Made by a program: the position numbers and the translations under genes
Part shown: piece after piece, positions 9,825 through 10,994 of the stretch
Layout of the letters: every line of letters starts with the position of its first letter
Position numbering within the stretch: the first letter of the stretch is position 1
Source: Acidimicrobiales bacterium
GTDB lineage: Bacteria; Actinomycetota; Acidimicrobiia; Acidimicrobiales; Aldehydirespiratoraceae
Reading direction: 5' to 3'
NCBI GenBank assembly: GCA_963422745.1
Contig: OY730477.1
Coordinates: 2,232,880-2,296,879 of the forward strand
DNA: 64,000 nt
Notes under the pieces: generated by a model
Database searches by the model: none
The model's input: the letters and a program-made list of their open reading frames with translations, nothing else
What the model was told of the DNA's origin: nothing

Positions 9825-10066
9825 CGAACTATTAATCTCCCACTCAATCATTCAATATCACCTCTGTCGCCGACAGTGATCGGAATATTTTCACAAGCAA
9901 GGCTCATGACAGAGCCTGCTGGGCAGTACCACCGATAAATGGGCCCGTCACACGCGGAGGAGGAACCTACATACCCGGAAGAGGAACCGGATTACTAGGA
10001 AAATATTGCACCGATGCCAATCCCGATCAATACCAAATATGGAGAATCGAAAATGCCAATTCATGA
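9825..10066 (+). pseudogene. orphan 3' fragment of a PLA2-lectin gene (last beta-trefoil subdomain, about 75 codons, no start)
   Basis: It reads TQSFNITSVADSDRNIFTSKAHDRACWAVPPINGPVTRGGGTYIPGRGTGLLGKYCTDANPDQYQIWRIENANS*, collinear with the C-terminus of copies B/C. It ends with the same overlap onto the next lipoprotein ATG. Confidence 0.8.
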
Positions 10067-10817
10067 ACACCAGATACTCCCAGCAGCTATCCTGATCATT
10101 GCATTGCTCGGTTCCGGATGCGGCTCGGACTCCGAACTAAAGACAACTGTAGAAACAACGGAACCAACAACGGAACCTGAGACCACTCCCGAAACAACAG
10201 CTATCACACTACCGTCAAGCACGACTATATCTACTACAACAGTGACATCTCAGCCTACCGTGACTATGGAAACCTCGACTGCCACAACCACCACATCCAG
10301 TCCGACCAACACCCTCCCGGTTACTACCGTAACCGCACCAGAAACTGGGGACTTGGAACCATATGTATTTGTATTGGCTGAGTTCTTTCTTGTCAATCTC
10401 AGTGACCGGTCCACTCCGATCGGCACACTATGCTGGGCGATGTGGGAATGGAGTAGAATGCACTCAATCAACGTATTCGAGGTTATGGCTGATCAATACC
10501 CGAGACTTCAAATAGTATATCCAGCAGACTATGATCACGAATACACCCTTATTGATGCGCTGGAAGAAATATCCAAACCGGAGATAGTCAGTATAGCCGA
10601 CAGCCCACAGTTCTCCAAAGAACTTCAACTCTTCGCCAAAGCCTTCTTTGAACAAGTACGAACTGACATCAAACTAATCGACGTTCTAACATCCGATCAA
10701 CTCGATTACAGCAAAACAGACTCCGGCTCCCTTGAAAAGATGCCACACCTAGATTCCTACCATGAAGAAGCAGCAGCCAACTCAGACCAATGCATATTTT
10801 CTGAGGACTACGACTGA
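10053..10817 (+). CDS. lipoprotein A2 (cassette lipoprotein family)
   Basis: MPIHEHQILPAAILIIALLGSGCGS (lipobox), a T/P/E-rich linker, then DRSTPIGTLCWAMWEWSRMH...YPADYDHEYTLIDALEEISKPEIVSIADSPQ. ATG 10053 is chosen by homology; the track ORF begins at 10014 inside the toxin relic. Confidence 0.85.
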   Translation: MPIHEHQILPAAILIIALLGSGCGSDSELKTTVETTEPTTEPETTPETTAITLPSSTTISTTTVTSQPTVTMETSTATTTTSSPTNTLPVTTVTAPETGDLEPYVFVLAEFFLVNLSDRSTPIGTLCWAMWEWSRMHSINVFEVMADQYPRLQIVYPADYDHEYTLIDALEEISKPEIVSIADSPQFSKELQLFAKAFFEQVRTDIKLIDVLTSDQLDYSKTDSGSLEKMPHLDSYHEEAAANSDQCIFSEDYD

Positions 10818-10873
10818 ACCCCTGCCATCGATCAATGCTCCGCAATACAATCAGAAGCACGGCCACTGATAGT

Positions 10874-10994
10874 AAGACTTGTGGGAAGATACCTACAAGT
10901 GGAAAGTCAGTTACACCGCGCAGAGGAACCCGATTGGTTGATGCGCATTGTAAGACCAATGCTCCGGACCCATACCAAATATGGAGAATAAGAA
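10874..10994 (+). pseudogene. second, shorter orphan 3' fragment of a PLA2-lectin gene
   Basis: KTCGKIPTSGKSVTPRRGTRLVDAHCKTNAPDPYQIWRIRN aligns with toxin-A GKCWTIPSIDTSVIPRRGTGLTNAICSDSFEGAYQIWRIDN. It runs into the ATG of lipoprotein A3. Confidence 0.7.

Follow-up and report, generated by a model that had tools for sequence, protein, structure and literature searches.

Orphan toxin tails and putative immunity genes at a predicted phospholipase A2-lectin toxin locus of an uncultured Acidimicrobiales bacterium

Toxin and lipoprotein genes of the window

The window, by which we mean the whole 64,000-nucleotide stretch of Acidimicrobiales DNA analysed here, carries putative toxin genes at loci A, B and C, each followed on the same (forward) strand by genes of a lipoprotein family. 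The toxins consist of a Sec signal peptide, a prokaryotic phospholipase A2 (PLA2) domain and a ricin-type beta-trefoil lectin at the C-terminus. At locus A, toxin A (7726..9131) precedes the lipoprotein genes A1 (9124..9822), A2 (10053..10817) and A3 (10995..11708). Toxins B (54535..55878) and C (59670..61022) are intact and possess a lectin tip of class II; toxin B, the reference copy for the tail fragA2 described below, is followed by lipoproteins B1-B4 (55865-58967), and toxin C by C1-C3 (61009-63298) and a 5' lipoprotein fragment.

Toxin A, regarded in the earlier note as a full-length resident, proved upon alignment to have, as assembled, a 1-nt deletion near 7778/7779 in the signal-peptide region, such that its signal peptide (ATG at 7726) is out of frame with its body (frame of 7737-9131); this frameshift could be an assembly error. 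Of the genome's five toxin paralogues, P0004 is frameshifted in its tip and P0005 truncated at its 5' end. Together with the frameshift in toxin A, this indicates that the toxin genes decay while the lipoproteins persist.

Besides the open reading frames, toxin A was delineated by its lectin (PF14200), the sole domain reported by a Pfam scan of the toxins, and by its PLA2 region, which is visible by profile search against PDB entries 1FAZ (E=5e-8) and 4AUP (E=1.5e-7). PF09056 is matched by 14 of 15 toxin-family members, the window's own copies scoring under the Pfam threshold, and the PLA2 His-Asp dyad is invariant in all 15 sequences. The toxins are, on this basis, predicted phospholipases in which the active-site residues of the catalytic domain are intact. 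An AlphaFold2 (AF2) toxin model, derived from an alignment of eight sequences, reached a pLDDT of 38.6 and was of no use for a fold search, the PLA2 assignment being made via the PDB and Pfam profiles. The catalytic region, including the C-x-x-H-D motif, aligns with those of the secreted enzymes (PF09056) of Streptomyces violaceoruber (1FAZ/1LWB) and Tuber borchii (TbSP1, 4AUP), and is Cys-rich and helical, as in secreted prokaryotic and fungal PLA2s generally. Unlike these, the window toxins possess an additional N-terminal Cys-rich extension, the C-terminal ricin-type lectin and a lipoprotein gene as neighbour.

Toxins A and B share 72% amino acid identity in the PLA2 region and 75% in the alpha and beta subdomains of the lectin, as against 38% in the linker and gamma subdomain. 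In each toxin pair compared, it is the gamma tip that evolves fastest, and the centrally positioned PLA2 domain is among the most conserved. A discrete signal of tip swapping was sought and discarded, since this rapid evolution of gamma leaves no clean classes. In the closest other genome of the set searched (locus L001), the toxin is only 55% identical.

The lipoproteins all possess lipobox-type N-termini and a long Thr/Ser/Pro-rich stalk, and are predicted, from signal peptide and lipobox Cys, to be exported and anchored on the membrane's outer face. A1, of class I, displays the lipobox, the Thr-rich stalk, a helical globular domain and the motif STPxGxLCWAxWE, and is probably the cognate immunity protein of toxin A. 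A2, an intact gene of class II with 58-64% amino acid identity to the B and C lipoproteins, is probably an orphan immunity gene, and A3, intact and of class I, is 62-65% identical to both lipoproteins that follow the L001 toxin. A2 shows 39% identity to A1 and A3 (39-42% for all pairs among the three), with the six invariant residues of the family and the C-terminal Cys retained throughout. The AF2 model of A3 is all-helical, with a pLDDT >90 over residues 80-230; Foldseek comparison of the lipoprotein model with the PDB returned nothing with E<4.9, and a Pfam search found no family at E<=0.1 beyond one chance-level match. The family is rare, with 128 cluster representatives among 1.84 billion proteins, and a metagenome scan with the lipoprotein profile revealed four distant loci only, near-identical in key motifs, and no close relatives.

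In 19 of 22 genome loci, and in all four metagenome loci, the toxin gene is directly followed by an open reading frame of the lipoprotein family. Several of the Acidimicrobiales concerned are labelled as sponge-associated families. PLA2 toxins that terminate in FN3 rather than in a lectin also precede a lipoprotein gene (L002, L003, L015, L018 and L019), as does a PLA2 remnant without lectin (L020), leaving the PLA2 domain as the sole constant neighbour of the lipoprotein gene. Owing to this toxin-then-lipoprotein order, which recurs in approximately 23 loci of other Acidimicrobiales MAGs and metagenomes, we read the lipoproteins as immunity proteins, which most likely act against the phospholipase.

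Toxin tails and junctions at locus A

The DNA between A1 and A2 contains an orphan toxin tail (fragA2; 9832..10066, forward strand), which begins 10-15 nt past the A1 stop codon and corresponds to a class II (B/C-type) lectin gamma subdomain. Its frame is open from 9836 for 77 codons (SPTQSFNITS...QYQIWRIENANS*), with a stop codon at 10064-10066. In blastn comparisons, 9837-10064 matched the 3' end of toxB (86% over 228 nt, E=4.5e-74) and 9832-10064 that of toxC (81%). At the protein level, identity amounts to 56/76 with toxin B, 53/76 with toxin C and 55/75 with P0005, a paralogue outside the window, versus 28/70 with resident toxin A, and the homology stands at z=58 against shuffles. The uninterrupted, B/C-like copy of the last lectin subdomain reported earlier is thus real. 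With toxin A, fragA2 shares a block of 26 nt only, the remainder being approximately 50-60% identical at the nucleotide level, and it begins some 20 codons past the point at which similarity between A and B/C collapses.

The similarity to loci B and C extends into the lipoprotein gene: 9832-10708 is colinear with the toxC tip plus C1 (78%, 877 nt) and with the toxB tip plus B1 (77%). This bears out the proposal that the tails are displaced toxin 3' ends moving with the downstream lipoprotein as a unit. Furthermore, fragA2 and the A2 module form a mosaic relative to B and C, implying that gene conversion continues to affect the tail and that this DNA is not wholly inert. No in-frame ATG, GTG, TTG or CTG is present in fragA2, which consequently cannot be translated on its own. 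The probability of its remaining stop-free under neutrality at the observed divergence is 0.22-0.43, and its open frame is hence no evidence of selection. Its dN/dS of 0.52 relative to toxB (0.52-0.63 overall) is on a par with that of the neighbouring intact lipoprotein genes, and this measure was set aside as a discriminator because it leaves relic and constrained sequence inseparable.

A second tail (fragA3; 10820/10835..10994, forward strand; z about 19 in protein alignment) precedes A3 and represents a decayed, A/L001-like lectin tip. It is closer to toxin A (22/43) than to toxin B (18/56), as had been noted, and scores best against the toxin of the other genome (P0006/L001, 24/54); its length is about 54-58 codons rather than the 40 or so first ascribed to it. 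Its C-W motif lacks the conserved Trp; its stop codon is also lost, and the frame (ORF 10835-11242) continues into A3 out of register. A further remnant, which adds to the earlier picture, was revealed by ORF translation and direct repeat D5: A4 (11726..11911, forward strand), a 3' portion of about 57 codons (MIEQTEAVGNDEVDHTKLPYP...) from a fourth lipoprotein gene, which begins approximately 17 nt past the A3 stop codon. All three remnants begin some 3-17 nt past the stop codon of the preceding lipoprotein gene.

The only part conserved across the three junctions is a block of 35 nt, within which 17 nt (ATACCAAATATGGAG.AT) are invariant; its first copy (9092..9126, forward strand; direct-repeat family D2) covers the YQIWRI codons of the toxin. 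The A1 ATG at 9124 overlaps with the toxin stop codon (9129-9131) and has GGAGG (9112-9116) as its Shine-Dalgarno sequence, while the ATG codons of A2 and A3 each have, 8 nt upstream, a GGAG belonging to the tail (10041-10044 in fragA2, 10983-10986 in fragA3). The W-R-I codons (TGGAGRAT) thus appear to double as the Shine-Dalgarno sequence of the overlapping lipoprotein ATG, and these codons, part of the last QxW motif of the lectin, are predicted to couple translation of the lipoprotein gene to that of the toxin. Each tail has kept this ancestral junction to its lipoprotein gene. The same stop/start overlap, with TGGAGRAT as Shine-Dalgarno sequence, is found in L001, L004-L009 and L011-L013. 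Inspection of the module junctions for attC-like elements, IS ends and inverted repeats revealed none of these, only the junction block. A promoter and terminator scan gave counts not clearly above those of shuffles, with a weak promoter-like site at 10822-10851 and none in fragA2, and Rfam returned a single chance-level match.

Origin of the tails

We consider it likely that the tails are non-functional 3' remnants of two older toxin-lipoprotein pairs, the lipoproteins of which were retained as orphan immunity genes. The homology of the tails to toxin 3' ends and their colinearity with the tip-lipoprotein units of loci B and C support this reading, as do the missing start codon of fragA2, the decay of fragA3 and of other toxin genes beside persisting lipoproteins, and the further truncations and conversion tracts, detailed below, in which the locus and its paralogues abound. 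Locus A would have been built stepwise, with a new toxin-lipoprotein pair upstream replacing most of the resident toxin, or supplanting it by deletion, and with the old toxin tail and its lipoprotein being shifted downstream at each step. The order of arrival that we infer runs from the A4 remnant through A3 and A2 to A1, which would be the newest. The last 35 nt or so of each tail may have been retained because they hold the ribosome-binding site and start context of the lipoprotein gene, the remainder drifting. We lean slightly towards such C-terminal displacement over deletion in situ, two routes which the data do not separate; the regularity with which remnants start is not predicted by random deletion or illegitimate joining, and no repeat, attC-like or IS feature explains it. 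That a lectin rather than a catalytic domain was displaced had been put forward as a new pattern; it is an outcome of domain order, the lectin tip being displaced merely because the lectin forms the 3' end of the gene.

An alternative requiring no incoming DNA, which we deem unlikely, is that whole units were duplicated in tandem, or by unequal crossing-over, in place and that toxins 2 and 3 were then lost through internal deletion. Whole-unit duplication does occur in this genome, as locus C is a copy of locus B that includes a piece of the upstream TPP-enzyme gene. Truncated genes are also frequent in the region: in addition to the A4 3' fragment and the duplicated TPP-enzyme piece, there are 5' fragments of B5 and C4. 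However, identity among A1, A2 and A3 is as low as 39-42%, and the tails are of different types, which implies that the units are ancient or separate in origin and not recent duplicates; locus A is hence not the product of a simple unequal crossing-over between recent whole units. Moreover, A2 groups with loci B and C while A3 groups with the lipoproteins of another genome, and toxin 5' ends, leaders and flanking genes have left no trace between the A units, in contrast to the B/C junction. GC content is 46-50% against about 60%, a difference at most suggestive of horizontal acquisition.

It is very unlikely, in our estimation, that the tails are working recombination cassettes, comparable to the orphan modules of CDI and Rhs loci or to silent pilin and VSG copies, which would place a gamma subdomain and its matching lipoprotein onto the full toxin and so alter receptor specificity and immunity together. 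The gamma tip is indeed the most variable toxin part, its dN/dS between toxB and toxC is 1.46 (on small counts), and fragA2 sets in shortly after the collapse of similarity between A and B/C. Sequence is also exchanged between loci, as evidenced by exact conversion tracts of 80 nt (toxA/toxB) and 243 nt (B4/C1) and by the mosaic A2 module. Nevertheless, beyond the 26-nt block, fragA2 has no homology arm to toxin A, each tail represents one third of a lectin fold and not a functional module, and fragA3 is decayed. Within arrays B and C, the inner lipoprotein genes follow a different spacer of 45 nt, which contains no toxin tail. In a tblastx search with each locus's own toxin tail, no orphan tips came up in the 19 loci, long lipoprotein arrays included, whose toxin 3' end could be read, the matches being second full-length toxin copies or at chance level; the duplicated lipoprotein of L001 is likewise without an orphan tip.

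The cassette reading would also draw on the co-variation of tips and lipoproteins. Their types are paired at locus A, a class II tip with A2 and an A/L001-like tip with A3, and lipoprotein identity tracks tip identity best (partial Mantel r=0.64, p=0.0002). This edge is gone once near-duplicates are removed, with r=0.53 for the tip versus 0.50 for the PLA2 core, and physical linkage suffices to explain the correlation. The earlier suggestion that the lipoprotein co-varies with the lectin end thus holds for the pairing of types; a functional coupling finds no support, given these values, the fast evolution of the tip and the FN3-ended toxins.

Equally doubtful is a role of the lipoprotein as lectin partner rather than immunity protein, in which it would serve as cell-surface anchor or receptor, with gamma bound by its Thr-rich, possibly O-glycosylated stalk or by its helical domain. 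Such binding would account for the continued association of tip and lipoprotein, and the presence of the stalk in all lipoproteins, the correlation of tip and lipoprotein identities and the lack of sequence or fold likeness to known immunity proteins are consistent with it. The lipoprotein gene, however, is also found behind the FN3-ended toxins and the lectin-free remnant of L020, fast-evolving multi-copy arrays (dN/dS 0.45-0.87) with orphan copies are typical of immunity genes, and translational coupling with a predicted membrane-damaging enzyme suits self-protection. Finally, we give the least credence of all to the orphan tips being silent donor cassettes from which gene conversion diversifies a receptor-binding gamma subdomain that the lipoprotein recognises in place of PLA2, although, if true, lectin tip plus lipoprotein would constitute a specificity module in which targeting, and not toxic activity, is swapped.

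Relation to known toxin systems

Arrays of toxin 3' pieces and genes behind a full-length gene are shared with the orphan modules of CDI (cdiA-CT/cdiI) and Rhs loci and with polymorphic toxin cassettes (Zhang et al. 2012, PMC3482391), and here as there the tip is passed on together with its downstream gene. The likeness drawn earlier to such orphan modules does not extend further. CDI/Rhs orphans contain a complete variable toxin domain together with a portion of constant region, which permits re-fusion to the main gene, whereas the locus A tails, each one third of a beta-trefoil, have no complete domain, start codon or homology arm to the resident gene. CDI/Rhs toxins combine constant N-terminal delivery with a variable C-terminal toxic domain; in the window toxins the C-terminus is a ricin-type lectin, and PLA2 (Tox-PLA2 in Zhang et al. 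2012) occupies an interior position and is conserved. Two-partner secretion/FHA repeats, YD repeats, VENN and PxxxxDPxGL were not found in the window toxins by Pfam scan, a Sec-type signal peptide being present instead.

A closer parallel is provided by the effector-immunity arrays of the Vibrio cholerae T6SS, built by sequential displacement (Kirchberger et al. 2017, PMC5361080), and by the 'C-terminal displacement' of Rhs (Jackson et al. 2009, as cited in PMC5361080). As in those arrays, several divergent genes of immunity type lie on the same strand behind one full-length toxin, and directly upstream of some of them are 3' ends of older toxins (fragA2 and fragA3). The orphan units match complete pairs elsewhere (here loci B/C and L001), and recombination can find an anchor in the conserved leader and 5' sequence of the toxin. 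Locus A differs in that it has no T6SS or Rhs core and a toxin with a Sec signal peptide, that a lectin subdomain, and not the toxic domain, makes up the displaced 3' end, and that the host is an uncultured member of the Acidimicrobiales.

TslA/TilA provides a precedent for a phospholipase toxin that is neutralised by lipoproteins encoded in multi-copy arrays (PMC10730906). In this Staphylococcus aureus system (DUF576 tandem lipoproteins), as in Tle/Tli of the T6SS, a phospholipase A-type toxin lies beside an extracytoplasmic lipoprotein, the genes of which form multi-copy, variable arrays with orphan copies. The window lipoproteins show no sequence or fold relation to Tli or TilA (Pfam; Foldseek against the PDB). 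The toxin has a group XIV-like PLA2 in place of an alpha/beta-hydrolase lipase, possesses a lectin domain, and is predicted to be exported by Sec rather than by the T7SS or T6SS.

The combination of displaced tails and orphan genes is known from other bacterial toxin systems and is found here in an undescribed toxin family. Records of it have so far come from contact-dependent toxin systems in Proteobacteria (T6SS, CDI and Rhs), to which a Sec-secreted PLA2-lectin toxin of uncultured Acidimicrobiales is now added. The rare lipoprotein, which belongs to no Pfam family and whose confident helical model has no PDB match, flags a candidate new toxin-immunity family. If its immunity role holds true, the arrays would represent a record of past toxin turnover in these symbionts, and would offer a way to study competition, or interaction with the host, among bacteria that have no cultured members.

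Three islands of toxin and lipoprotein genes

The window has a GC content of ~61% and contains three islands at 47-53% GC, each of which begins with a gene for a ~450-aa protein, followed on the same strand by three or four paralogous lipoprotein genes. Locus A comprises the toxin gene toxA (7726/7737-9131) and the lipoprotein genes A1 (9124-9822), A2 (10053-10817), and A3 (10995-11708), locus B comprises toxB (54535-55878) and B1-B4, and locus C comprises toxC (59670-61022) and C1-C3. Within the toxin genes (from 7737 in locus A), GC starts at 60-67% at the 5' end and drops steadily, reaching 49-53% at the tip; the lipoprotein arrays are constant at 46-50%; two flanking genes that were checked have ~58-60% GC (GC3 of 74% in one). 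This gradient could arise if the 3' modules are foreign or if the shared 5' parts underwent GC-biased conversion. An 836-aa ORF on the reverse strand (21657-24167; 53-55% GC) carries three near-identical ~90-aa N-terminal repeats (…ITRIDEMFPALAARQGPAPVAELPMRACNALRIAGIDSWEQIL…), unrelated to the toxin tails.

In toxins B and C, the N-terminus is a Sec-type signal peptide. A ricin-type beta-trefoil lectin (PF14200) makes up the C-terminal half of the toxins, and its last subdomain (gamma) forms the tip. The N-terminal domain on its own has no Pfam match; a profile of 15 toxin homologues matches the phospholipases A2 (PLA2) of Streptomyces (1FAZ, E=5e-8) and Tuber (4AUP, E=1.5e-7), in both cases spanning the catalytic C-x-x-H-D motif, and 14 of the 15 homologues match PF09056, with the His-Asp pair invariant. 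A hydrophobic insertion of ~28-30 residues (TIAMAIGLEIIFPWGLGSILAFLAENNDVIL) directly precedes this motif in toxin A (8337-8420) and in P0004, a paralogue elsewhere in the source genome, and is missing from toxins B, C, and that of L001, a locus in another genome. The lipoproteins consist of a lipobox, a Thr-rich stalk, a ~140-aa globular domain with the motif N-x-N-D-x-S-T-P-x-G-x-L-C-W-A-x-W-E, and a C-terminal Cys. They match no Pfam family, and the confident, all-helical predicted structure of A3 (pLDDT >90, residues 80-230) found no fold match in the PDB. Both families are rare: a word-indexed search gave 10 toxin matches, and the lipoproteins account for 128 cluster representatives in 1.84 billion proteins.

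Displaced toxin tails in locus A

The earlier note held that toxin 3' fragments precede A2 and A3, and this is borne out. The fragment before A2 (fragA2) is 86% identical to the 3' end of toxB across 228 nt (9837-10064; blastn, E=4.5e-74) and 81% identical to toxC (9832-10064), and its protein is, as claimed, closer to B and C (56/76 and 53/76 identities) than to A (28/70). Its frame is indeed open, for 77 codons from 9836 rather than 75, ending in QYQIWRIENANS and a stop at 10064-10066; an open frame is expected under neutral change with p=0.22-0.43, and it contains no in-frame ATG, GTG, TTG, or CTG start. The fragment before A3 (fragA3) is likewise a toxin tail (z ~19 versus shuffles), more similar to A (22/43 identities) than to B (18/56) as proposed, its top score being with P0006, the toxin of the L001 genome (24/54). 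It measures ~54-58 codons from 10820/10835, not ~40, and has lost its stop and one conserved Trp.

The stretch 9832-10708 is colinear with the toxC tip and C1 (78%, 877 nt) and with the toxB tip and B1 (77%); fragA2 and A2 are therefore a 5'-truncated toxin-lipoprotein pair of class II (B/C type). A2 shares 58-64% identity with every B/C lipoprotein and 39% with each of A1 and A3, A1 and A3 share 42%, and A3 is 62-65% identical to both lipoproteins that follow the L001 toxin. Tail type matches lipoprotein type because the two are one inherited unit. A3 is itself followed by a third remnant (A4; ~11726-11911), which comes from the 3' end of a lipoprotein gene. All three remnants begin ~3-17 nt from the preceding stop codon, and no repeats or mobile-element features that could explain these regular starts were found. 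Across the three toxin-lipoprotein junctions, only a 35-nt block is conserved (17 nt invariant).

The locus A fragments are displaced toxin tails with orphan lipoprotein genes. Homology-facilitated illegitimate recombination, by which an old effector 3' end is 'shifted back', has been proposed for T6SS immunity arrays (PMC5361080), and such a displacement is the somewhat more likely origin of the tails. The toxin leader and 5' half, well conserved between loci, could be the anchor, and three successive displacements would yield the order toxA-A1, fragA2-A2, fragA3-A3, and A4 remnant. The somewhat less likely alternative is that toxin genes of an old tandem array were deleted in situ. Simple unequal crossing-over, raised as a counter-explanation in the earlier note, is ruled out as a recent event because A1, A2, and A3 are so deeply diverged, and tail and lipoprotein types are associated. 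Displacement of a lectin subdomain, in the earlier note a pattern that would be new, follows from the domain order.

Recombination and decay

Recombination is active in this region. Exact-identity tracts join toxA and toxB (80 nt; 8082-8161 = 54880-54959), B4 and C1 (243 nt; 58560-58802 = 61345-61587), and A2 and B4 (59 nt; 10596-10654 = 58746-58804). Outside them the paralogues are 55-80% identical, and the loci lie up to 46 kb apart; the tracts indicate recent gene conversion between loci. The A2 module is a mosaic with respect to B and C, and locus C is a diverged copy of locus B. At the B/C junction, a lipoprotein signal-peptide fragment (59054-59101) is joined to two pieces copied from the 3' end and downstream region of the upstream TPP-enzyme gene (59106-59165 matching 54064-54123; 59170-59252 matching 54381-54461). 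The last element of array C is a 5' lipoprotein fragment (63343-63483) with 97% identity to the B4 5' end, and sequence homologous to 59245-59418 follows it. The segmental-duplication history at 59054-59418 and 63343-63644 is complex.

Toxins decay and lipoproteins persist. Within 7726-7800, toxA lacks 1 nt near 7778/7779 that toxins B and C have. The deletion lies in a G-rich run of the sequence encoding the signal peptide and places this peptide (MKKRWSAWAVVVAVCFGVGAW) out of frame with the protein body; toxA is either a pseudogene or affected by a homopolymer assembly error. The P0004 tip is frameshifted, and P0005, a second paralogue outside the window, is truncated at its 5' end. At 58221-58260, B4 has one additional A at ~codon 6 compared with the C4 fragment (GACAACTAC versus GACACTAC), which shifts its N-terminal frame and leaves only a GTG start at 58257, lacking a charged n-region. 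Just upstream of toxA lies a 23-nt tandem direct repeat (GATTCSGTAGTTGTTATCGGCAG; two copies, one mismatch; 7626-7671), with one partial copy (gattcggtagttg) at the same place upstream of toxB (~54463) and a ~60-nt leader after it conserved between loci; the repeat may be a regulatory site.

Tip exchange and toxin-lipoprotein pairing

The earlier comparison with CDI/Rhs orphan modules holds as regards displaced tails with orphan lipoprotein genes, but not further: toxA and fragA2 share only a 26-nt junction block, with no homology arm for recombinational grafting onto the resident toxA, and fragA2 holds one third of the lectin fold. Gamma evolves fastest in every toxin comparison (A versus B: PLA2 region 72%, lectin alpha/beta 75%, linker plus gamma 38%; A versus L001: 74%, 63%, and 37%), and the tips are therefore not clean exchangeable classes. 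Lipoprotein identity tracks tip identity best (n=13 toxin-lipoprotein pairs; partial Mantel r=0.64, p=0.0002); the tip advantage vanishes without a few near-duplicate pairs (r=0.53, against r=0.50 with the PLA2 core), and physical linkage predicts the same correlation. Orphan tips were absent from the other loci tested, long arrays included, and from the duplicated L001 lipoprotein; within arrays B and C, the inner lipoprotein genes have a different conserved 45-nt spacer. The tails are remnants, not working swap cassettes.

When one genome per species was scanned, 22 loci emerged. All lie in MAGs of Acidimicrobiales or other actinobacteria, and several carry the labels of sponge-associated families. 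Directly 3' of the toxin, 19 of the 22 have a lipoprotein-family ORF, as do 4/4 metagenome loci. In distant loci, the last toxin codons, W-R/K-I, are spelled TGGAGRAT or TGGAAGAT, and the lipoprotein ATG, overlapping the toxin stop, follows 6-8 nt on, so that the toxin tip doubles as the lipoprotein ribosome-binding site. The lipoprotein gene also follows toxins with an FN3 C-terminus (L002, L003, L015, L018, and L019) and a lectin-less PLA2 remnant (L020); hence the PLA2 domain is its constant partner. In L020 (9920-11140) and L010 (4677-6554), a PLA2 part and a lipoprotein-family part share a single stop-free frame, the L020 PLA2 domain stopping short directly after the catalytic motif, which looks like another kind of toxin remnant joined to a lipoprotein gene. 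L015 (11843-19059), L019 (11844-20710), L013, and L017 carry arrays of 3-5 far longer partners (350-730 aa), each with two copies of the conserved STPxGxxCW motif region in L015 and L019.

Gene coupling, exported location, multi-copy arrays, and the high dN/dS of the lipoprotein genes (0.45-0.87) fit a putative toxin-immunity pair of the phospholipase/lipoprotein type, as represented by TslA/TilA (PMC10730906). This candidate PLA2-lectin/lipoprotein toxin-immunity family is a by-product of more interest than the tails themselves.
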